From the NCBI GenBank assembly GCA_963777355.1, contig CAVZQK010000020.1, positions 1-64,000 on the forward strand: 64,000 nucleotides of DNA, in the 5' to 3' direction. Shown here one piece after another: positions 10,943 through 21,459 of the stretch (positions are counted from its first letter, which is position 1; each line of letters starts with the position of its first letter). The position numbers were made by a program, and so were the translations under genes. A model generated the notes under the pieces. It worked only from the letters and a program-made list of their open reading frames with translations, did not search any database and had not been told where the DNA came from. The stretch comes from an uncultured Chloroflexia bacterium. Lineage in GTDB: Bacteria > Chloroflexota > Ktedonobacteria > Ktedonobacterales > Ktedonobacteraceae.

Positions 10943-11527
10943 ATGCCACTATCCATTGCCAACGCCACATTGCTCATCATTGATGTCCAGCAGGGATTCG
11001 ATGATCCATTCTGGGGGAGACGCAACAATCCCCAGGCCGAAACCAATATTGCCCGTTTACTTGCGATCTGGCGAGACCTGCACTGGCCTATTATCCATGT
11101 CCAGCATCTCTCGCGCCTTCCCAATTCCCCACTCTCTCCCAATAACAAAACAGGCTCTGACTTCAAAGAGGTCGTCCGCCCACTCCCCGGAGAAACCATT
11201 ATTACAAAACACGTAAATAGCGCCTTTATTGATACACCCCTGGAAGCACTTCTTCACGAGCAGCAGGCAACAACGCTGGTTATCGTCGGCTTGACCACAA
11301 ACCACTGCGTGGAAACGACGACGCGTATGGCTGGCAACCTGGGATTTACCGTCTATCTGGTCGCCGATGCAACTGCGACCTTTGATCGCGTGGGACCTGA
11401 CGGTATCCTGTATCGTGCAGAAGAGATTCAAGCAATCAGTCTGGCTAGCCTGCACGACGAATTTGCCCAGGTTGTCTCCACAGAAACGCTTCTCAATGCC
11501 GCTGACTACACGTTGCCTCATGTCTGA
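10943..11527 (+). CDS. isochorismatase-family cysteine hydrolase
   Basis: 'LLIIDVQQGF' N-terminal motif, 'LVIVGLTTNHCVETTTR' catalytic Cys region. Confidence 0.75.
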   Translation: MPLSIANATLLIIDVQQGFDDPFWGRRNNPQAETNIARLLAIWRDLHWPIIHVQHLSRLPNSPLSPNNKTGSDFKEVVRPLPGETIITKHVNSAFIDTPLEALLHEQQATTLVIVGLTTNHCVETTTRMAGNLGFTVYLVADATATFDRVGPDGILYRAEEIQAISLASLHDEFAQVVSTETLLNAADYTLPHV

Positions 11528-13398
11528 GGCAGATAGCCGGCAGGGAGATAAATTGCATATCCATCTCTCAACAGACGTAGATAATGCAGAGTATGTTGTT
11601 CGTTGTATTGCAAGAACGTCTCATCCTGGCTAGAGTGCAAAGGAAATACATAGAATGGTTGCGAGGCATGAGACACGGCGTCGGCATAGGGTTGATAGCG
11701 ATTTAAGCCAGGCTCAAGATGGCTTTGCAAAACACCGCACTTGATCTCTTCGAGACTCTGAAACGCGAGACGATCACAGGTCGAATAGTCGGTATACAGA
11801 TAGCGAGCATTCATCTCACGCAGATCAATCAGCAGCGCAAATTGCTGCACATTCTGCGCTTCTGTAGAGCGAAATTGCTGAAAGATATTCAAGGTTCCGA
11901 TGAGAAACGTTACCGCTATTACTAGCAGCAACAAGTAGCTTGCGCCAGCCCTCAGTAGAGCCTGCCATTTAAGAGGTGAAACCAGACTGGTCTTCTCCCA
12001 AAGAAAAGCCAGAAGCGCTGGATAGACAATGAGCAGGCCAATCAGGTAGCGGGAAGAGGTCCAGGGCGAGAGCTCAGCCGGAGGGAAAAGGGTGTAGAAA
12101 AACCAGGTAAGAGCGGCACTGAACAATACAGCCAGTCTGGCAACCTGGCGAATCGTTGCCTGGCGCGCTGAAAGAGGCTGAGCGGGGGCGGGAGCACGAT
12201 ACCACAATCTAGCAGAGACCTGAAGCGCAAAAGGTTTTGTGGATTCTTCCCAGCGTTTCCAGTAGAGCTGATAGGCCGCTACTAGCGCCGTTAGCAACAG
12301 CGTCAGATAGCCCAGTCCCCAGACGCCATGTATCAGAGTACAGCGCAAGGTCGGTTCATCCATCTGTTCCAATGGCAGGTTTGCATTCTGCTCTGGAACG
12401 GCACAGAGAACACTTCCACCTGTTATCACAGGTATACTCACCATAATTGAGCCAGCAAGCTGTCCAAGCAGACTTGCCTGGCGCACCGGCTCAGCCTCAC
12501 CTGCACTCATCATAGCGGTACTTCCTGGCCCGGCCACATCTCCTTTTGGTTGGGCAGAAACAGCACTGCCAAAGATCGAGGCCGGCGGTGGCTGAACCTC
12601 TGTAGCTTTATAGATGATCTGGGGAGCAAGACCGAGCAGAAAGCCAAAGACGAGCAGGGCAATCACCGACATACGTAGCTCACTGCGGCAAAAAATGAAC
12701 AGCAGCAAAGCCGTTGTGAGCACAAAGGGCAGAATCAGGGGATTGCTCCAGATGGCCAGACCGGCAACCAGACTCCAGGCAAGATAGACCAGGGAACGTC
12801 GCAGGCGTATATGCAGGAGGTGTGGTCCCTGACGAGACGTGAGAGCGAGCCAGGAGGCCAGCACAAGCAGAAGTGAGCCAAAAAAAACAATCTCCCCGTA
12901 GCCAGCATTTGCCGTCAACTCGTGCAAAAGCAACTCCGGAGAGCCCAGACTCAAGATACAGAGCGCTAGCAGCGCAGCTTTCTGCGAATATAAGAGACTG
13001 ATCAGTAGATAAGTAGAAAGCAGGAACAGGGCAAAGAGCAGAACCATACCCAGACGTAGGGCAAAAACGCCGGGACCAAAGACAGTAAACGAAAGCGCGG
13101 CAAGATAGGCTTCAATCGTACCCATATAGTCTTGCCCATAAAAGACCAGGGGATGTGCACCATTTTTTAGAATATGCAGGGCCATCAGGCCCATCGTCGC
13201 TTCGTCACTATCAAGCGCAGGCCAACCTTTTTGCACGATCAGAAGTCGCAGTAGCGAGGCCAGCAAGATAACAACAAACGCGGCAAACCCATAGATACGA
13301 AAATGGCAACGTATTAATAGAGCTTTAAGATAGATACTCAGACGAGATTTCCCCGCCAGTGACCGCTCAGGTACTGGCTTCAAACGTTGTGTATCCAA
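11518..13398 (-). CDS. GT39/GT83-like membrane glycosyltransferase (ArnT/PMT_2-type, dolichyl-phosphate-mannose mannosyltransferase-like)
   Basis: 626 aa polytopic membrane protein; N-terminal 'LDSDEATMGLMALHILKNGAHPLVFYGQDYMGTIEAYL' matches the ArnT/PMT DE-motif loop. Confidence 0.55.
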   Translation of the reverse strand: MDTQRLKPVPERSLAGKSRLSIYLKALLIRCHFRIYGFAAFVVILLASLLRLLIVQKGWPALDSDEATMGLMALHILKNGAHPLVFYGQDYMGTIEAYLAALSFTVFGPGVFALRLGMVLLFALFLLSTYLLISLLYSQKAALLALCILSLGSPELLLHELTANAGYGEIVFFGSLLLVLASWLALTSRQGPHLLHIRLRRSLVYLAWSLVAGLAIWSNPLILPFVLTTALLLFIFCRSELRMSVIALLVFGFLLGLAPQIIYKATEVQPPPASIFGSAVSAQPKGDVAGPGSTAMMSAGEAEPVRQASLLGQLAGSIMVSIPVITGGSVLCAVPEQNANLPLEQMDEPTLRCTLIHGVWGLGYLTLLLTALVAAYQLYWKRWEESTKPFALQVSARLWYRAPAPAQPLSARQATIRQVARLAVLFSAALTWFFYTLFPPAELSPWTSSRYLIGLLIVYPALLAFLWEKTSLVSPLKWQALLRAGASYLLLLVIAVTFLIGTLNIFQQFRSTEAQNVQQFALLIDLREMNARYLYTDYSTCDRLAFQSLEEIKCGVLQSHLEPGLNRYQPYADAVSHASQPFYVFPLHSSQDETFLQYNEQHTLHYLRLLRDGYAIYLPAGYLPQT

Positions 13399-13526
13399 GC
13401 GATGCTCCCCTATATCGTTCTCGCAAACATGCAGCGCAAAGCAGTAATAAAGTATATGTGTCTCTATACAACGATGAGCCTGGAGAAGTCAAGTCATATT
13501 TTTCGATATAGTAAGCTTGCCACTAG

Positions 13527-16007
13527 TTACGCCGGTGTCTTATTCGATTTACCAAGATCTCGCTCTACATGGAGCACATCTTTTACACGTTCCAGGCGGG
13601 TAAAAAGTCGCTGGATCTGCTCAAGATCATATACCTCCACGGTTGTTGTCACCATTACCTGCTCACGACCATTGTGAGAATGTGAATTCACTGAGACCAG
13701 ATTAATATTACAGTCTGAGATGACAGTGGCAAGATCGCGAATCAGGCCGGGACGATCCTGTGCGGTAATGACTATAGGAGCAAGGTAGCGCGGCTGACTC
13801 ATGCCTACCCAGTTCACATGAATTAAACGTTCGCGGTCCCGCTCACGAAAACGAGCAATGTTCCGACAGTCCGAGCGATGGACGATCACACCTTTGCCGC
13901 GACTGATAAAACCGACGATCTCATCGCCCGGCAGGGGACAACAACAATTCGCCAGATGGGTCAAGAGTCCACTTACTCCTGCTACTTCCAAATCTGCCGA
14001 TATTGCCTGCTTGAGAGCTGGTGAAGGATGGACTATTTCGGTCTCTTCTTTGCTCTCTTTATGCTCTTTCGGACCTTCGCGCTGCTGCCAGTATTCAAAC
14101 AACTTGACAACTACAGCACGCGGACGCAGGTCGTCGGACCCGATGGCCGCCAGAATATCGGCGAGGTCATCCAGATGATATTCATGGCACAACCAGTTAG
14201 CGGCATCCTCGCTAATGTTCTCGGTGCTATTGCGTGAACCGGCATTCTTCAGCTCACGCTCCAGCCGCTCACGGCCAATCTGCACGTTAATATAGCGCTC
14301 GTGCATCTTCAGATAGCGGCGAATCTTGCTCTTTGCTGCCGCCGTGCGCGTAAAGCTGAGCCAGTCGCGGGTGGGATGGGCGGTACGACTCGTGACGATA
14401 TCAACTACTTCGCCATTTTTCAGCTCGTAGTCCAGAGGAACCATACGCGTGACCAGGCGATCTCCATCGCCACTTCCTACCTGGGAAATAATACGTGCGC
14501 CGGCACAGGCATCCCCAATCTTCGTATGGACGCGGTAGGCAAAATCAACCGGCGTGGAGCCTACGGGGAGATCCTTTACCTCGCCTTTCGGCGTGAAAAC
14601 AAAGATCTGCTCTTGAAAGAGATCATCTCTTACGACCTCAATAAATTCTGTCTCGCTATTGGTCGAGCGCAGCTCACGCTGCCATTCGGTCATCTGGCGC
14701 AACCAGGTAAGCAGCTCTTTGGCAGAGGCAGAGGCGGTATCCCCAACGTCTTTATAGTGCCAGTGCATCGCTACCCCATATTCGGCCAGTTCGTGCATTG
14801 CATGGGTGCGAATCTGTACCTCTACCAGTTGATTGTCCATGCAGAAGATCGTTGTATGGAGCGCCTGATAGCCGTTTGGCTTGGGATTGGCGATGAAATC
14901 TTTGATGCGGCCATCCTTTGGTCGCCAGAGACTATGCACATGACCGAGCGCAATATAACAATCGGAGGTCGTATCAACCAGGATGCGAAAGGCAATTAAA
15001 TCGTGAATCTGACTGATATCTGCGGCGGCTTTTAGCTCTTCAATTGTCGCAAATTCGCCGGTGGTACGCAGAATCTTCTTATAAAAACTATAGAGATGCT
15101 TGACCCGGCCAGAGATCTCCGCTTGCACATCTACCTGGGACATCTCCTGGCGCAGAATACCACAGACGCGCTCGACATAAGAGCGCCATTGCTTCCGCTC
15201 CAACTCGACAATCTCACGCACCCAGGCAAAGCTCTCCGGCTCCAGAATCTGAAATGCCAGATCATCCAGCTCGGATTCCACACGCGACATCCCCAGGCGA
15301 CCAGCCAACGGCGCATAGATCTCACGCGTCTCCAGGGCCATTGTCACCATCTCTTGCTGATCACCCTGATACTGGGGAGCACACATCATACGCACAGCAT
15401 GTAAACGATAGGCCAGCTTGAGCAGCACCACACGCGGATCTTCCGCCATCGCCACAAACATCTTCCGCACCGTCTCAGCCTGCTGGCGGCGCATCGCCTC
15501 CCGAATCCGTGGCTTTTTACTCTCGGCAGCGGAGCCACTCACCTCATCTCGCTCGTCACTGGACTTTTTTATCGCCGTCGTCTGCGAACCCTGAATAGCA
15601 AGTAAGGCTCCATCCGTAATACTCTGTTTTTTGCGCTCTAGAATATTCAGACGCCACATACTACCGACAACACGAGCCGTAGCAGCGCCAAGCACCTGCT
15701 CTACGACCTCTAACGCTAGCAATTCGGCATCTACCGCCTCAAAAACGAGTCCAGCGGCAATACCTATGGCATCAACATGCATCGTCTCGGCGAGAATAAT
15801 AGTGACCGCTAATGCATGATCCAGAGGGGGAAGAAGACGCTGGCCAGGCACGCCATGACACGTCTCTTGAGCCAGGCGATACGCGCGAATGACCTGGTTT
15901 ATCTCACTCTCATCCATGTATTCACGAATCAGAGTAAGAAGACTCTCCATCGCGCCTCCATATTCCTGTGGTACAGTCTGTTGTTCAACAAGCCTATCAT
16001 CAATCAT
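13527..16007 (-). CDS. long RelA/SpoT-homolog (p)ppGpp synthetase with degenerate HD hydrolase motif (HD->FE)
   Basis: HD-domain region 'LVFEAVDAE' instead of 'LLHDVVEDT'; intact synthetase motifs 'RPKDGRIKDF' and 'GYQALHT'; TGS and ACT regions present. Confidence 0.85.
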   Translation of the reverse strand: MIDDRLVEQQTVPQEYGGAMESLLTLIREYMDESEINQVIRAYRLAQETCHGVPGQRLLPPLDHALAVTIILAETMHVDAIGIAAGLVFEAVDAELLALEVVEQVLGAATARVVGSMWRLNILERKKQSITDGALLAIQGSQTTAIKKSSDERDEVSGSAAESKKPRIREAMRRQQAETVRKMFVAMAEDPRVVLLKLAYRLHAVRMMCAPQYQGDQQEMVTMALETREIYAPLAGRLGMSRVESELDDLAFQILEPESFAWVREIVELERKQWRSYVERVCGILRQEMSQVDVQAEISGRVKHLYSFYKKILRTTGEFATIEELKAAADISQIHDLIAFRILVDTTSDCYIALGHVHSLWRPKDGRIKDFIANPKPNGYQALHTTIFCMDNQLVEVQIRTHAMHELAEYGVAMHWHYKDVGDTASASAKELLTWLRQMTEWQRELRSTNSETEFIEVVRDDLFQEQIFVFTPKGEVKDLPVGSTPVDFAYRVHTKIGDACAGARIISQVGSGDGDRLVTRMVPLDYELKNGEVVDIVTSRTAHPTRDWLSFTRTAAAKSKIRRYLKMHERYINVQIGRERLERELKNAGSRNSTENISEDAANWLCHEYHLDDLADILAAIGSDDLRPRAVVVKLFEYWQQREGPKEHKESKEETEIVHPSPALKQAISADLEVAGVSGLLTHLANCCCPLPGDEIVGFISRGKGVIVHRSDCRNIARFRERDRERLIHVNWVGMSQPRYLAPIVITAQDRPGLIRDLATVISDCNINLVSVNSHSHNGREQVMVTTTVEVYDLEQIQRLFTRLERVKDVLHVERDLGKSNKTPA

Positions 16008-16453
16008 AGCATATATCGTTTATGGATATCTGGTCTATCCGGAAAGGAACTATCCAGTATGTGCGTTCCTTGACTAGAACGTGTCTTTAAGACCGCTCTC
16101 TGCATAAACGTTGCGTAAATGTTGTATAAACGCTCCACTCTTTCAGACACGCCCTAATATACGTTTTAAATTCTCTTTATTGAAACAACACTGGCAATGC
16201 TCGCTCATCCCGTCTCTCTACAGAGTATAACGTTTCTTTGCGATGTGCGAGTAAGCAGGACTAACAGAGTGCTTTCCTGTTTGCTTGATGAGCTACAAAG
16301 ACGTCCCACATGAACCTATAAAAAAACAGATTGTATTTATCTCTAACTCTAATATCGCATAAAATAGCCATAACAACACTGTTTTTATGCGCAAATTTTT
16401 GCGATGGCTTGAATTCTCCCTGGTGGAGGTACTTCTTTGTACCAGTTCCCCAA

Positions 16454-18928
16454 TTACTTTGTGAGGGCCCGTTCTACACTTACCACATGCTTCACCTGTT
16501 TCAGGCGACGGAGAAGACGCTCAAGCTGATCCAGCACGCTATCGTGGCTATCAATCTCTAGCGTTGCAGTGATGACTGCCTTTTGCAGCGATGTATTTGT
16601 TGTAGAGGTAACCGAGGTCATGTTAATGCCCGCGTCCGCGACTATCGCGGCTATGTCCCGCAACAGGCCAGAGCGATCATGGGCAACAATGTTGATTGGA
16701 ATCAGATATGACTCAGGATCAATCTGTCGCCAATGCATCTCTACCAGCGCGTTCGGTACATCGCGGTAACGCCGCAGGTTGCGGCAATCGTTCCGATGAA
16801 CCAGCATCCCTTTGCCAGGATGAATCAAGCCAGTAATTGTATCACCAGGGATAGGACAACAACATTGAGCCAGCTTGACATGGAGAGGACTGGCTGCGGC
16901 TTCCTCCTCAGGCTGTTCGTCCAGATCCATAACGTCAGCAGGCCCAGCAGGCAAGGCCGTTTGAGCGCTCACGGCTGGAAGCACATACGGCAATAAGCAC
17001 TCCAGCACGCGCTCAACGGGAAGATCTTCTCTGCCAATCGCAACATAGATATCCTCAAGCGTGGCATAGTTCTTGAGAGGAGTCTCGACATCTGAAAGGC
17101 GTAACTTCAAAATCTCTTCTTCAACGGAAGGAGATATGCCACTGACCACTCCAGAGGTCTTTAAGACCAGATCGAGACGCTCACGGCCAAGCTGAAGATT
17201 AATCTCGCGCTCATACGTTTTCAGGTAGCGCCGAATCTTATTGCGGGCCGCCGCCGTGCGCGTAAAACTTAACCAGTCGCGCGTAGGATGGACCGTCCGA
17301 TTCACCACAATATCGACGATCTCGCCACCCTTTAGTTCGTAATCCAGAGGCACCAGGCGTGTGACCAGGCGTCCACTATCATCCATGTTGGTGATGATGC
17401 GTGCCCCTGCACAATGGTCGCCGATATCGGTATGAATGCGATAGGCCATATCCAATGGAGTAGAGCCGCGTGGCAGATCTTTTACCTCCCCTTTAGGGGT
17501 AAAGACAAAAATCTGCTCTTGAAAGATATCGCCCTTGACCGCCTCTACAAACTCATCGGCTCCCTGGGGCAGTTCCCGCTGCCACTCGCGCAACTGCTCG
17601 ATCCAGGTCACCATTTCATGATAAGAGAGACGCCAGCTACTGGGCATACCCTCATTTTGCGCATCTGAGAGCTTCTCCGCCTGGCCCATGCGATCCTTTA
17701 GATACCAATAACTTGCAATTCCGTAGTCGGCGGTGCGCTGCATATCATAGGTGCGGATCTGAATCTCTGCCAGCCTGTTCTCCAGACAGAAGACGGTAGT
17801 ATGGAGAGACTGGTAGCCATTCAGTTTGGGAGTCGCGATAAAATCCTTGATGCGCCCATCCTTTGGACGCCATAAAGCGTGGATATGGCCAAGCGCAAGA
17901 TAGCATTCGTCATCAGAATCTACCAGAATACGAAAAGAGACCAGATCATGAATCTGACTCAGCTCGTCGCTGTTCTGCTCTTCTATTTTACGGTTAATAC
18001 TCGCCAGATGCTTCTGCCAGGCGACTACCTGGGCATGGATGCCGGCACGTTCCATCTCTTTGCGCAAGGCCCGGCAGACCTTTTCGATATATCCCTGACG
18101 GCGCTTCACTTCTTCTTCAACAGTACGGGCCAGGCGGGTAAATTTTTCTGGTTCAAGATAGCGCAGGGCCAGATCCTCAAGATCCGCCTGCACATTTGCC
18201 ATGCCCAGGCGGCGGGCCAGGGGAGCATAGATCTCGCTTGTCTCACGCGCCTTGTTCTGCTGTTGGGCAGAAGACATCGCGGAGAGGGTGCGCATATTAT
18301 GGAGCCGATCCGCCAGCTTTAAGACAACAACACGTGGATCTTCGGCCATTGCCAGCAGCATCTTACGCACTGTCTCCGTCAGAATGCGGCGCTTATCAAC
18401 AATAGAGGGGGGCGGTGAAATCTCAGCAGGCATCTCTTTATGTGCAATATCAGTAGGGGCGGGCTGAGGTCTTCCTGCCAGGGCATCGAATTTTGTGACA
18501 CCATCCACTATCGTCGCTACAGCAGCACCAAAAGCACTCTGAATATCCTCCAGAGAACAACTGGTATCCTCGACGACATCATGCAAAAGTGCGGAGACGA
18601 TCCCATCTGCATCAATACGCATATCTGCGAGGAGAAAGGCTACTTCGAGAGGATGTTGAATATAGGGCTCTCCTGAATTGCGCACAGCCCCCTGATGGGC
18701 TTTATTCGCCAGCTCATAGGCCCGACGAATCTTCTCCTGGTCGTCAGAGGTCAGGTACAGTCCCGTCTCTTGCAGTAGCTCTTTGAGCGTGAGCTTTGAA
18801 GGAGCCAGGGTTGCCCCTGAATAGGTACTTTCTGTACCTAATGATGCCTGAAACCTATTTGAGATATTATTGACGTTCATAGTCATAACACGTCCCTTGC
18901 GCTGCCTGGCATACCGTTTGTTCTGCAT
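16454..18928 (-). CDS. rel: bifunctional (p)ppGpp synthetase/hydrolase Rel/SpoT
   Basis: canonical 'HPLEVAFLLADMRIDADGIVSALLHDVVEDT' HD motif, 'RPKDGRIKDF', 'GYQSLHT', TGS and ACT domains; ~45-aa N-terminal extension so true start may be internal. Confidence 0.85.
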   Translation of the reverse strand: MQNKRYARQRKGRVMTMNVNNISNRFQASLGTESTYSGATLAPSKLTLKELLQETGLYLTSDDQEKIRRAYELANKAHQGAVRNSGEPYIQHPLEVAFLLADMRIDADGIVSALLHDVVEDTSCSLEDIQSAFGAAVATIVDGVTKFDALAGRPQPAPTDIAHKEMPAEISPPPSIVDKRRILTETVRKMLLAMAEDPRVVVLKLADRLHNMRTLSAMSSAQQQNKARETSEIYAPLARRLGMANVQADLEDLALRYLEPEKFTRLARTVEEEVKRRQGYIEKVCRALRKEMERAGIHAQVVAWQKHLASINRKIEEQNSDELSQIHDLVSFRILVDSDDECYLALGHIHALWRPKDGRIKDFIATPKLNGYQSLHTTVFCLENRLAEIQIRTYDMQRTADYGIASYWYLKDRMGQAEKLSDAQNEGMPSSWRLSYHEMVTWIEQLREWQRELPQGADEFVEAVKGDIFQEQIFVFTPKGEVKDLPRGSTPLDMAYRIHTDIGDHCAGARIITNMDDSGRLVTRLVPLDYELKGGEIVDIVVNRTVHPTRDWLSFTRTAAARNKIRRYLKTYEREINLQLGRERLDLVLKTSGVVSGISPSVEEEILKLRLSDVETPLKNYATLEDIYVAIGREDLPVERVLECLLPYVLPAVSAQTALPAGPADVMDLDEQPEEEAAASPLHVKLAQCCCPIPGDTITGLIHPGKGMLVHRNDCRNLRRYRDVPNALVEMHWRQIDPESYLIPINIVAHDRSGLLRDIAAIVADAGINMTSVTSTTNTSLQKAVITATLEIDSHDSVLDQLERLLRRLKQVKHVVSVERALTK

Positions 18929-19431
18929 TCCAGACCTTTCTCAAAATGCGTCCGGCAGCAAACAATGAAACAGAGTAACGGAACACCCTGCCCGACACAT
19001 CTAGATAAAGCAGCCCATACAATTAGAGACTGCCTTGAAACCCCCGAAATAAAAAAAATACCCCCCGGCATTCTTACCAGATAAGCTTTATGACAATTTT
19101 GAGTAAAAGGACATTCCTGCAAAACAAAGGTTACTTCTCTATTATAAGGTGCAACTCAGCGCTGTCAAGCAAAAATCAAAAATCTTTGGCTTTTGGATAC
19201 AGTCTTCCTTCTTTATTAATTTAGTATTGCCATAAATTGAGAAAAGATTGATTGGTTGGAGTCAGTGCGCTATGCTCTTTACTATAAGAACATCGGCACA
19301 TGGGGAGTTATTCCTGAGAGGAAACACGAACAAGGCAATGCCAAGAACATACCTTAGCTTTGCCTGTTATCATTTCACTATAGGGAGAAAACCACGAAAC
19401 TGTCGAAAGCTCATCCATGCGGAGGCTTTAT

Positions 19432-19746
19432 CTAATTGCGGGTGACCCGAACTTTATCATAGCAGGGACTGCAATAGACAGGGCGATCATTCTTAGGCAA
19501 GAATGGAACCTGTGTCTCAGTTCCGCACTCAGCACAAATAACCGTGTGCATCTCGCGCTCTCGCGGACGCTCACCACTGGTAGAACGGCCTCCACCGGCA
19601 GCAGCACGACGGGCGGCACGGCACGAGGAACAGCGGCTGGGCTGGTTCATCAGACCTTTTTGCTGGTAAAACTCTTGTTCTCCTGCGGTGAACACGAAGT
19701 CGTTTCCGCACTCACGGCATCTTAGGGTTTTGTCATCGAAGCTCAA
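19432..19746 (-). CDS. small double zinc-ribbon protein (two CxxC...CxxC units)
   Basis: 'CRECG...CSSC' and 'CAECG...CSPC'; AGGAGG RBS immediately upstream. Confidence 0.55.
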   Translation of the reverse strand: MSFDDKTLRCRECGNDFVFTAGEQEFYQQKGLMNQPSRCSSCRAARRAAAGGGRSTSGERPREREMHTVICAECGTETQVPFLPKNDRPVYCSPCYDKVRVTRN

Positions 19747-20265
19747 CTAGGGACCTCCTTATGATAGGGTGGTTATCCTCCGGGTCCATATCTTGCAGAT
19801 GTCACCAGTCGTTCTTTCCCCTACCAGCGTGGGATATGATAGCCTGGACGAGCACTGTATGCGAGACCGAGATTGGATACCGTTTGCAAGCATACACCAT
19901 CTTTTTCTGATTTGCAAGGGCTTTTGCGGGATTTACTGAGTAATAGCGATTATTTTTATGGATATTTTATATGGTGATTTTAGATGAGAAAAGTACTCAA
20001 AGATGCTGATTGTATCTCATCCCTAAATTCTTTTTTACATTGTCCATTTCTATTACACTCTTTATGCAGTTCCCATCACGCCTTCGTTGAAACCAACAAA
20101 CACGCCTTCGTTGAAACCAACAAAACGGCCTGGCTTGACGGTGGTGAGAAAATAAGCAGGAGAAAATTTTAGAATGTGTCTCAAGTTCGCTTGCTCTAAG
20201 CAATTTCTGTGCTCGCTCCAGACATATTCTGAGCGTTCGTTCTACATAATGCATCTGTTCAGTAA

Positions 20266-21459
<1,194 letters not shown>

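Follow-up and report, generated by a model that had tools for sequence, protein, structure and literature searches.

Tandem long RSH genes of Ktedonobacteria suggest an independent repeat of the RelA/SpoT division of labour

Divisions of labour among long RSH enzymes of the RelA/SpoT family are already known in Beta- and Gammaproteobacteria, Bacteroidetes and plants. E. coli RelA has an extended loop between helices alpha6 and alpha7 (H-loop), through which its synthetase activity is controlled (PMC8012599). The sections of two reports that deal with Rel and RshB of Bacteroidetes describe a lineage-specific duplication, in which one copy is devoid of key hydrolase residues and judged a monofunctional synthase, whereas the hydrolase-competent copy is bifunctional and hydrolysis apparently depends on it; those sections make no mention of a tandem order or of a remodelled donor pocket (PMC3153485; PMC6994654). 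In plants, RSH1 carries a Gly→Ser substitution in the synthetase (SYNTH) domain, and the His-Asp dyad of the HD domain is replaced with Ser and Glu in CRSH (PMC8509286). SpoT[Hs] of A. baumannii (Moraxellaceae, PDB 7QPR) has lost D272, Q347, R277 and Y329, and R249 is substituted (Rel_Tt numbering) (PMC9974481). The survey of RshA-D, i.e., divergent long RSHs nested within Rel and found in one lineage, sampled no Ktedonobacteria (Atkinson 2011; PMC3153485).

Two long RSH genes, referred to as copy A and copy B, lie head-to-tail on the minus strand of the window, i.e., the entire 64-kb stretch of DNA analysed here:

16454..18928, minus strand: copy B, long RSH of 824 aa; hydrolase site intact, donor pocket of the synthetase remodelled (most likely SpoT-like)
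13527..16007, minus strand: copy A, long RSH with an 826-aa ORF; hydrolase site dead, synthetase canonical (predicted RelA-like)

As described in the initial annotation, both ORFs encode RSH proteins of ~825 residues with TGS and ACT domains. HD_4, RelA_SpoT, TGS, RelA_AH_RIS and ACT_4 each score above the Pfam cut-offs in both copies, in the order HD–SYNTH–TGS–AH/RIS (zinc-finger region)–ACT, and both keep the ligands of the zinc finger as well as the His of the TGS domain that senses tRNA. The HD_4 score is 159 bits for copy B versus 82 bits for copy A, and PF01966 is matched by copy B and not by copy A. Both proteins pass the TIGR00691 model of long RSHs of the RelA/SpoT family (A, 549 bits; B, 624 bits; cut-off 499) and fail the equivalog models of proteobacterial RelA (NF008124; A, 470.6 bits; B, 421.2 bits; cut-off 728) and proteobacterial SpoT (NF008303; B, 510.5 bits; A, 464 bits; cut-off 947). 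The two copies share 44% identity across ~800 residues (BLASTP, E = 0), which excludes a chance likeness. Copy A probably starts at ATG 15950, which is preceded by GGAGG 6 nt upstream and yields 807 aa, the length of a database protein (P0001). Full-length AlphaFold2 models of the two proteins have a pTM of 0.46-0.50, with pLDDT < 50 in the TGS and zinc-finger regions, and differ from full-length RelA and SpoT by an rmsd above 18 Å.

[quoted passage not shown] The Mn2+ ligands of Rel_Seq are H53, H77 and D144, and either R44Q or D78A abolishes hydrolysis (PMC13299517). The following regions were delimited in copy A:

15288..15884, minus strand: pseudo-HD domain (residues 42-240), including GQRLLPPLDH (15816-15845), LVFEAVDAE (15723-15749) and LKLAYRLHAVR (15390-15422)
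15468..15653, minus strand: H-loop insertion between alpha6 and alpha7 of the pseudo-HD domain, 60 residues versus 16, low pLDDT
14748..15110, minus strand: SYNTH domain, including GRVKHLYSFYKK (15075-15110), RIKD (14898-14909) and EVQIRT...AMHWHYK (14751-14822)

At the positions of R44, H53, H77, D78, E81, D82, D144 and N148, copy A features G, H, F, E, D, A, Y and A; Y50 is also replaced, with P. Of the three Mn2+ ligands, only H53 thus remains (H77F, D144Y), and R44 and D78 are replaced as well (R44G, D78E), along with E81D, D82A and N148A. LVFEAVDAE takes the place of the HD motif, as originally proposed, in the same register as HDVVED of copy B in three independent alignments (BLASTP; phmmer, with M. 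smegmatis RelA as the reference; MAFFT, B. subtilis Rel included). The A family comprises at least 120 orthologues; the hydrolase site that marks bifunctional Rel[HS] is absent from all 121 members scored per position, and the replacements are fixed or nearly so. The pseudo-HD domain is still modelled as helical with high confidence (pLDDT 88-94). The stand-alone hydrolases MESH1, RelH and SAH are recovered with the B model and not with the A model. Both copies carry the HD insertions noted at the outset: the H-loop is 60 residues long in A and 40 in B. In B. subtilis Rel, as in most representatives, it has 16 residues, and in E. coli RelA 22.

The synthetase residues of copy A are canonical at every scored position (G240-R241-x-K243, S247, K251, D264, R269, Y308, H312, E323/324, Q325/326 and H343), and the catalytic loop contains a fixed 12-residue insertion. 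D264G and E323Q are known synthetase null mutations, and both D264 and E323 are invariant in A. Because the hydrolase residues are lost and the synthetase residues intact, we predict that copy A is RelA-like ([hS]) and would only synthesise (p)ppGpp, in keeping with the initial annotation. A decaying pseudogene is rejected given the intact ORF, the invariant synthetase and the at least 120 orthologues.

Copy B shows the converse, which the initial annotation did not note, with the hydrolase site kept and the synthetase changed:

18200..18721, minus strand: HD domain (residues 70-243), including RNSGEPYIQH (18653-18682), HDVVED (18566-18583) and LKLADRLHNMRT (18287-18322)
18371..18490, minus strand: H-loop insertion between alpha6 and alpha7 of the HD domain, 40 residues versus 16 in typical Rel, low pLDDT at residues 150-173
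17693..18016, minus strand: SYNTH domain, including the variant motif 1 AWQKHLASINRK (17987-18022), RIKD (17843-17854) and EIQIRT...ASYWYLK (17696-17767)

The equivalents of R44, H53, H77, D78, E81, D82, D144 and N148 are kept in 120-121 of the 121 B-family members scored per position (at least 120 orthologues), so that B has the hydrolase site of bifunctional Rel[HS]; its HD domain is modelled with a pLDDT of 80-93. Both copies had been described as keeping the synthetase motifs, which holds for RIKD and GYQ(A/S)LH; in B, however, motif 1 and the MHxxAEyGvAAHWxYK region are altered. Copy B features AWQKHLAS where GRxKHxYS is expected, with W304 as the equivalent of R241, and MQRTADYGIASYWYLK in place of the second motif. 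The donor-pocket substitutions are G240A, R241W, Y246A, H333Q, E334R, E337D, H343Y and Y346L. W occurs at position 241 in 121/121 family members, and Y at position 343 in 120/121. Among 150 long-RSH representatives, by comparison, R is found at position 241 in 147 and H at position 343 in 144, and all but one of the exceptions at each position fall inside the Ktedonobacterial clade. R241 is retained in one relative (L004_B), and G240 is not strictly invariant among other long RSHs.

In RelP, the equivalents of R241 and R269 pi-stack on the adenine of ATP, whose ribose is held by a His (PMC5794853). In E. coli RelA, G251E abolishes and H354Y reduces synthesis (PMC4154780); counted on the phmmer alignment, these residues correspond to G240 and H343. 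At the positions of the canonical synthetase site, copy B has A240, W241 and Y343, with the Mg2+, catalytic and GDP/GTP (acceptor) site residues kept. Since the adenosine subsite of the ATP donor is rebuilt despite the retained catalytic residues, B is most likely SpoT-like: hydrolysis would dominate, and the synthetase would be altered and probably weakened. The B synthetase is under strong constraint, with no sign of relaxation (mean SYNTH identity 0.86 in B vs 0.82 in A).

A model with A as synthetase-only and B as an ordinary Rel with both activities in full, the B substitutions being neutral or the result of compensatory repacking, is in our view unlikely. Copy B could be a fully active synthetase, as K243, S247, K251, D264, R269, RxKD, K304, N306, Y308, Q309, H312, E324, Q326 and R328 are all kept, including the catalytic, Mg2+ and acceptor-site residues, and conservation of the SYNTH domain equals that of A. 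The N-terminal model of B also matches S. aureus Rel with a TM of 0.90, and the W and Y changes may be functionally conservative, since a Trp is able to stack on adenine and a Tyr to form a hydrogen bond with ribose, which would preserve both capacities. However, eight substitutions at positions invariant in Rel/RelA were fixed together in the B family, two of them at the otherwise near-invariant R241 and H343, and the RelA mutants mentioned above lose activity in part (H354Y) or completely (G251E). Outside the HD domain, moreover, B is farther from the outgroups than A (1.28 vs 1.20). The view of B as an ordinary Rel, taken in the initial annotation, is not borne out by these family-wide changes, which make the divergence of A and B reciprocal.

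Subfunctionalisation might instead be complete, with B reduced to a hydrolase carrying a non-catalytic pseudo-SYNTH domain, as in Moraxellaceae SpoT[Hs] or plant RSH1. The loss of the adenine-stacking Arg (R241W) and the changes H343Y and G240A, at positions whose mutation impairs RelA, would fit, as would the precedent of plant RSH1, which is held synthetase-dead through Gly→Ser (PMC8509286), and the further decay of a divergent, truncated B-type paralogue of Ktedonobacter robiniae (P0250; R241Q, R269D, R295G, Q326H). We regard this as improbable: constraint on SYNTH is not relaxed, and the equivalents of the catalytic D272 and Q347 and of the substrate-stacking R277 and Y329, the residues lost in A. 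baumannii SpoT, are kept (117-121/121; D264 in 120/121, Q326, R269 and Y308 in 121/121 each), with the R249 equivalent (R241) alone replaced, which places B outside the definition of a dead pseudo-SYNTH.

Also improbable is the idea that the synthetase of B is more than weakened, its donor pocket having been rebuilt to accept another donor, to yield another product or to form a new allosteric nucleotide site, and that the hydrolase-first tandem acts as an antitoxin-like safeguard. R241W, H343Y and E334R are fixed class-wide under strong purifying selection, with the catalytic residues kept; if the idea were true, a rebuilt donor pocket combined with a hard-wired safeguard for a RelA-like partner would represent a new route to alarmone homeostasis.

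The gene pair is a fixed feature of the class Ktedonobacteria, which are soil bacteria, in the loci sampled. The B→A tandem, with the same residue signatures, was found in 9/9 Ktedonobacteria genome loci, Thermogemmatispora included. These nine are the loci among the matches listed and constitute the synteny sample, obtained by a profile search of genome contigs for the A-specific pseudo-HD; the pseudo-HD search pattern QAETVRKM proved generic, as it also matches Streptomyces Rel. A and B additionally share an insertion in the TGS domain:

17342..17404, minus strand: TGS segment of copy B with the ~10-residue insertion common to A
14427..14498, minus strand: TGS segment of copy A with the shared ~10-residue insertion

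This insertion is present in A, B and seven related representatives, of which the five named carriers are Ktedonobacteria/Chloroflexota, and is absent from 143 other long-RSH representatives. In a distance-based NJ tree, A and B are monophyletic (100/100 bootstrap); among the 150 representatives the clade is confined to Ktedonobacteria/Chloroflexota, and it splits at its base into A-type and B-type branches. The best reading is that an ancestral Rel underwent an ancient, class-wide duplication, after which A and B would have subfunctionalised. The local duplication postulated initially is lineage-specific, on the strength of the clade and the shared insertion, but it is not recent, given the tandem in 9/9 loci and at least 120 orthologues of each copy. 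Horizontal gain of A from a RelA lineage is rejected, since A has the RxKD motif and the TGS insertion found in B, and groups with B at 100/100 in the NJ tree. It is improbable that the pair is accessory to a canonical Rel and has a specialised role, e.g., in development or sporulation of these filamentous bacteria: the class does have further RSH paralogues, among them P0246 (a fusion of 1303 aa) and P0250, but no RSH gene other than A and B was found within the 64-kb window, the named carriers of the TGS insertion are all Ktedonobacteria/Chloroflexota with no insertion-free representative, among the minority that are named, tied to the class, and named species have one A and one B orthologue each among the matches listed.

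The two genes are accompanied by the following elements:

19141..19168, minus strand: sigma-70-type promoter TTGACA-16-TATAAT (12/12 consensus), ~210 nt upstream of copy B
15951..16453, minus strand: spacer between B and A, 446 bp from ORF to ORF or 503 bp up to the probable start of A

The block CTGCTTGACAG...CCTTATAATAGAG at the B promoter is kept in the closest relative (L001), Dictyobacter alpinus (L003) and Thermogemmatispora (L005), and is the only conserved promoter-like element at the locus. The spacer had been described as AT-rich and 445 bp long; it is AT-rich (GC 0.40-0.41 vs 52% for the window), but its length needs the correction given above. Its sequence resembles that of L001 only, and its length ranges from 55 to 751 bp among relatives. 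Separate promoters, suggested earlier from the spacer, find no backing: the promoter-like site at 16197-16170 is a 9/12 match and is not conserved, and one relative has a spacer of 55 bp. A scan of the minus strand of the spacer for terminators revealed nothing convincing. An Rfam scan of 13000-20300 (E ≤ 1) yielded two chance matches to eukaryotic families and no known riboswitch or leader, and the folds of the leader and of the region after B are no more stable than shuffled sequences (z = -0.8 and -1.3). We infer that A may be co-transcribed with B, although the length and AT-richness of the spacer and its weak promoter-like match speak against it.

Taken as a whole, the model in which a duplicated Rel gave rise to a RelA-like synthetase (A) and a SpoT-like hydrolase (B) has, in our estimate, a probability of roughly 0.7. 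An ancestral bifunctional Rel would have undergone tandem duplication on the stem of Ktedonobacteria (Chloroflexota). The pseudo-HD domain of A, with its extended alpha6-alpha7 H-loop, would presumably serve as a regulatory module, and B would be the (p)ppGpp hydrolase of the locus, with a weakened or altered synthetase; these activities are deduced from residue states. The gene of the predicted hydrolase comes first, behind the conserved strong promoter, with that of the predicted synthetase next on the same strand. Such linkage would help to keep a potentially toxic synthetase from being inherited or expressed without its hydrolase.

If so, the pair adds a deep-branching Chloroflexota replicate of RelA/SpoT-type subfunctionalisation, and would serve as a natural test of the residue changes that a long RSH tolerates while still under selection. 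The W241/Y343 donor pocket of B-type proteins provides a specific variant for studying how the balance between synthetase and hydrolase is tuned. The label "bifunctional (p)ppGpp synthetase/hydrolase" attached to A-type proteins of Ktedonobacteria is probably wrong as to hydrolysis.

Of the known systems, RelA[hS]/SpoT[HS] of Beta-/Gammaproteobacteria is alike in that Rel was duplicated, one copy is non-hydrolysing with a conserved pseudo-HD domain, and the other, as B, keeps a full HD site. Copy A has both the degenerate HD site and the extended H-loop of proteobacterial RelA. The convergence is striking, as positions 77, 81 and 82 are occupied by F, D and A in E. coli RelA and copy A alike (LLFPLADA vs LVFEAVDA). 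In contrast, copy A keeps a Rel-type RxKD motif (RIKD) rather than ExDD, and the origin of A and B is independent, as they are each other's closest relatives. Furthermore, relA and spoT are unlinked in E. coli, whereas the A and B genes are neighbours in conserved synteny throughout the class. R241W/H343Y occur in 0/143 representatives outside the Ktedonobacterial clade, a set that may or may not include proteobacterial SpoT. Copy B resembles Moraxellaceae SpoT[Hs] in being hydrolase-competent with the adenosine-coordinating Arg (R249 = R241) replaced. Plant RSH1 (hydrolase-only) and CRSH (synthetase-only) are likewise long RSH paralogues specialised by point substitutions, and D78E of copy A recalls the Asp→Glu change of CRSH; those proteins, however, are eukaryotic, non-tandem and differ in domain complement. 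Compared by description, the Rel/RshB pair of Porphyromonas and Bacteroides belongs to a different phylum and results from a separate duplication. Also by description, A and B together match the concept of RshA-D, forming one clade confined to Ktedonobacteria/Chloroflexota among the 150 representatives, a lineage other than those of RshA-D. A RelA-like/Rel-like split outside Gamma- and Betaproteobacteria, first noted here as unusual, is indeed uncommon, but is documented in RshA-D (PMC3153485) and, in the sections cited above, in Bacteroidetes (PMC6994654). The tandem pair is thus best read as an independent repeat of the RelA/SpoT split rather than as a new kind of system.

Two long RelA/SpoT homologue (RSH) genes lie on the minus strand, exactly where the initial annotation had placed them, and no further RSH genes are present within the 64-kb window.

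RSH genes of the window
13527-16007, minus strand: copy A (RelA-like), ORF of 826 aa
16454-18928, minus strand: copy B (SpoT-like), ORF of 824 aa

Each copy carries the full set of long-RSH domains (HD_4, RelA_SpoT, TGS, RelA_AH_RIS and ACT_4) and passes TIGR00691, the NCBIfam RelA/SpoT subfamily model; the two are 44% identical end to end (E = 0). The HD_4 score of copy A is about half that of copy B (82 vs 159 bits), and only copy B, of the two, matches the generic HD model PF01966. The likely start of copy A is ATG 15950, preceded by GGAGG at a distance of 6 nt and in agreement with the 807-aa database protein P0001. The B-A spacer measures 446 bp from ORF to ORF and 503 bp to this ATG, and has a GC content of 40-41% vs 52% in the window.

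Active sites were scored in both copies, each with 120 orthologues (121 per family), using as numbering reference B. subtilis Rel, which coincides with Rel_Seq numbering through the HD domain. In Rel_Seq, H53, H77 and D144 are Mn2+ ligands, N148, T151, K45 and S46 contact the guanine, and hydrolysis is abolished by R44Q and also by D78A (PMC13299517). Residues R44, H53, H77, D78, E81, D82, D144 and N148 are all intact in copy B, and in 120-121 of the 121 B-family members. The same positions in copy A are occupied by G, H, F, E, D, A, Y and A, respectively, and these replacements are themselves at or close to fixation among A-family members (E78, D81 and Y144 in 121/121 members, A148 in 115/121, F77 in 107/121). 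The degenerate HD motif initially noticed in copy A is thus genuine. A mere shift of the motif is excluded, since BLASTP, phmmer against M. smegmatis RelA and MAFFT give the same register and no alternative His/Asp pair is found near the motif.

Decay of the pseudo-HD of copy A is ruled out by its conservation (mean pairwise identity 0.72-0.80 in the A family) and by the confident helical fold predicted for it (pLDDT 88-94), which together indicate a maintained pseudo-enzyme domain. At three of the replaced HD positions (F77, D81 and A82), copy A and E. coli RelA match, a likeness that we read as convergence. HD-domain insertions, also reported initially for both copies, map to the alpha6-alpha7 loop, which has 60 residues in copy A and 40 in copy B vs 16 in a typical Rel (family medians, 50 in A and 42 in B). 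The corresponding "H-loop" of E. coli RelA is longer than in Rel/SpoT and controls synthetase activity (PMC8012599).

In AlphaFold2 models (mean pLDDT, 66 for copy A and 62 for copy B) the HD and synthetase cores are confident and the alpha6-alpha7 insertions have low confidence; global conformations are too uncertain to be interpreted. The N-terminal half of copy B fits S. aureus Rel (TM 0.90) and Rel_Seq (TM 0.84), and also recovers the stand-alone hydrolases MESH1, RelH and SAH. That of copy A fits Rel catalytic fragments with TM 0.70-0.75; the best-ranked structural matches of the copy A model are ribosome-bound E. coli RelA, and no stand-alone hydrolases occur among its matches. The TGS histidine that senses tRNA and the Cys/His ligands of the zinc finger are retained in both copies, which leaves ribosome association possible in principle for either.

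The two copies also differ in the synthetase domain. Copy A is canonical at G240, R241, K243, S247, K251, D264, R269, RxKD, K304, N306, Y308, H312, E324, Q326, R328, H333, H343, W344, Y346 and K347, and nearly all scored positions are invariant over the 121 A-family members. D264G and E323Q are known synthetase null mutations (PMC13299517). A fixed 12-residue insertion is found in the catalytic loop of copy A. The initial statement that both copies keep the synthetase motifs holds fully for copy A and, in copy B, for RxKD and GYQ(A/S)LH, but copy B carries eight family-wide substitutions, all at positions where B. subtilis Rel and E. coli RelA are identical.

Synthetase substitutions in copy B, with the number of B-family members sharing them
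G240 to A: 113
R241 to W: 121/121
Y246 to A: 118
H333 to Q or E: 121 (85 Q, 36 E)
E334 to R: 121
E337 to D: 114
H343 to Y: 120
Y346 to L: 117

In a set of 150 long-RSH representatives (50% identity clusters), just 3 lack R at position 241 and just 6 lack H at position 343; apart from P0313 (position 241) and P0296 (position 343), all exceptions fall inside the Ktedonobacterial clade. S. aureus RelP holds the ATP adenine by pi-stacking between its R241 and R269 equivalents and uses a His to hydrogen-bond the ribose (PMC5794853), while R249 of Rel_Tt (R241) coordinates adenosine (PMC9974481). In E. coli RelA, G251E abolishes and H354Y reduces synthesis (PMC4154780); these residues correspond to G240 and H343, as counted in the phmmer alignment against M. 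smegmatis RelA. From its motif position, the ribose-binding His of RelP would be H343; if so, copy B has its changes concentrated in the adenosine subsite for the donor.

Phosphate, Mg2+, catalytic and acceptor residues of copy B are unchanged, with K243, S247, K251, D264, R269, RxKD, K304, N306, Y308, Q309, H312, E324, Q326 and R328 retained. In contrast to the dead pseudo-synthetase of A. baumannii SpoT, defined by loss of D272, Q347, R277 and Y329 (PMC9974481), copy B shows none of these losses. Because these residues are kept and the domain is as conserved as that of copy A (mean identity 0.86 in the B family vs 0.82 in the A family), the synthetase of copy B is probably altered and attenuated rather than dead.

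Named orthologues of the pair come from Dictyobacter, Tengunoibacter, Ktedonosporobacter, Thermosporothrix and Ktedonospora, which places the window in Ktedonobacteria. The B→A order on one strand is invariant in nine genome loci (spacers, 55-751 bp), among them Dictyobacter alpinus, Thermogemmatispora and several MAGs. Reciprocal residue signatures are present in 9/9 loci, the sole exception being copy B of L004, the single B-type sequence with Arg at 241. Copy B ORFs are seemingly truncated or interrupted in two MAG loci (L002 7728-9659, 650 aa; L004 802-2529, 594 aa).

Copies A and B share a TGS insertion of ~10 residues that is otherwise found in seven representatives, five of which, with named clusters, are Ktedonobacteria/Chloroflexota, and is absent from 143 others. 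In distance-based NJ trees, A, B and divergent relatives form a clade with 100/100 bootstrap support, with HD columns in or out. Its basal split separates an A-type branch (degenerate HD, canonical synthetase) from a B-type branch (variant synthetase), in which HD is intact in the core B family, P0244 and P0250 and lost in the fusion protein P0246. Acquisition of copy A as a proteobacterial relA is ruled out by the clade and the shared insertion. Sequence comparisons thus indicate that the pair is a duplication within the Ktedonobacterial lineage, tandem ever since; such an origin also fits copy A having RxKD instead of ExDD, and RelA and SpoT equivalog scores below threshold. The local duplication proposed initially is lineage-specific, as the clade and the insertion attest, but it is not recent, given the nine loci.

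Other proteins show that the long-RSH repertoire of Ktedonobacteria is expanded. P0246 (1303 aa), a third paralogue from Ktedonobacteraceae/Chloroflexota MAGs placed inside the B-type clade, matches the N-terminal two-thirds of the A+B profile over its first ~510 residues; it features a degenerate HD site, a B-type-like synthetase with R241, the shared TGS insertion and a C-terminal region of ~750 residues, and one partial sequence in its cluster bears the annotation "AAA family ATPase". P0250 (Ktedonobacter robiniae WP_201375448, 609 aa) is truncated and B-like, with a further decayed synthetase (R241Q, R269D, R295G and Q326H). Two divergent proteins of A type, P0242 and P0245, have degenerate HD motifs of other kinds. 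These genomes may also carry a third, canonical Rel elsewhere.

A putative promoter precedes copy B, in a sequence block conserved in the closest relative (L001), Dictyobacter and Thermogemmatispora.

Putative promoter upstream of copy B
19168-19141, minus strand: perfect TTGACA-16-TATAAT, ~210 nt upstream of copy B

The B-A spacer is conserved in the nearest relative only; its best resemblance to a promoter is 9/12, and its coding strand shows no convincing terminator. Copy A may be transcribed together with copy B or from a promoter of its own. The ~210-nt leader of copy B (18929-19140, minus strand), running from the conserved promoter to the gene, includes a hairpin resembling a terminator, with T8 behind it (19081-19064); L001 has a similar element. 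The hairpin may act as an attenuator or belong to a small RNA; the leader has no Rfam match and folds no better than shuffles (z = -0.8).

The gene directly preceding copy B (19432-19746, minus strand) encodes a 104-aa protein carrying two treble-clef zinc-finger domains (zf_Tbcl, zf_Tbcl_2); it keeps this place and orientation in 9/9 Ktedonobacteria loci and, at 72-97% identity, is better conserved than either copy. Next downstream of copy A comes a 626-aa membrane protein, polytopic and without a Pfam match (11518-13398, minus strand); it probably lies outside the RSH unit, as it is conserved there in L001 only. The tgt gene (queuine tRNA-ribosyltransferase; 20278-21459, plus strand) is split: Pfam TGT profile positions 3-193 fall in ORF 20278-20955 and 250-355 in ORF 21070-21459, and the middle part lies in the +1 frame, so that two compensating frameshifts are required within ~170 nt. 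In L001, both terminal matches share one frame, consistent with an uninterrupted gene; the split is either a sequencing/assembly error or a pseudogene.

Copy A would be a starvation-activated (p)ppGpp synthetase unable to degrade its own product, and copy B the source of hydrolase activity, perhaps with low or modified, SpoT-like synthetase activity. In E. coli, spoT is essential while relA is active (PMC8012599). Permanent linkage, in which the gene for the hydrolase comes first after a strong conserved promoter, would plausibly serve as a comparable safeguard.

Subfunctionalised long-RSH duplicates are documented in several lineages. They include RelA/SpoT in Beta- and Gammaproteobacteria, with subfunctionalisation complete in Moraxellaceae (PMC3153485, PMC9974481); RshA-D, the HD of Bacteroidetes RshB being as divergent as that of RelA (PMC3153485); plant RSH1 and CRSH (PMC8509286); and a Porphyromonas/Bacteroides pair with one monofunctional synthase, a copy from which key hydrolase residues are missing (PMC6994654). 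The 2011 census did not sample Ktedonobacteria and reported a single Rel[HS] in other Chloroflexi classes (PMC3153485); in the literature searched, no paper ties Ktedonobacteria to (p)ppGpp enzymology. By its sequence features, the Ktedonobacterial pair is therefore another of these known systems, distinguished by class-wide tandem linkage, by a dead HD motif and H-loop that converge with RelA, and by the W241/Y343 donor pocket in the hydrolase-competent copy B.
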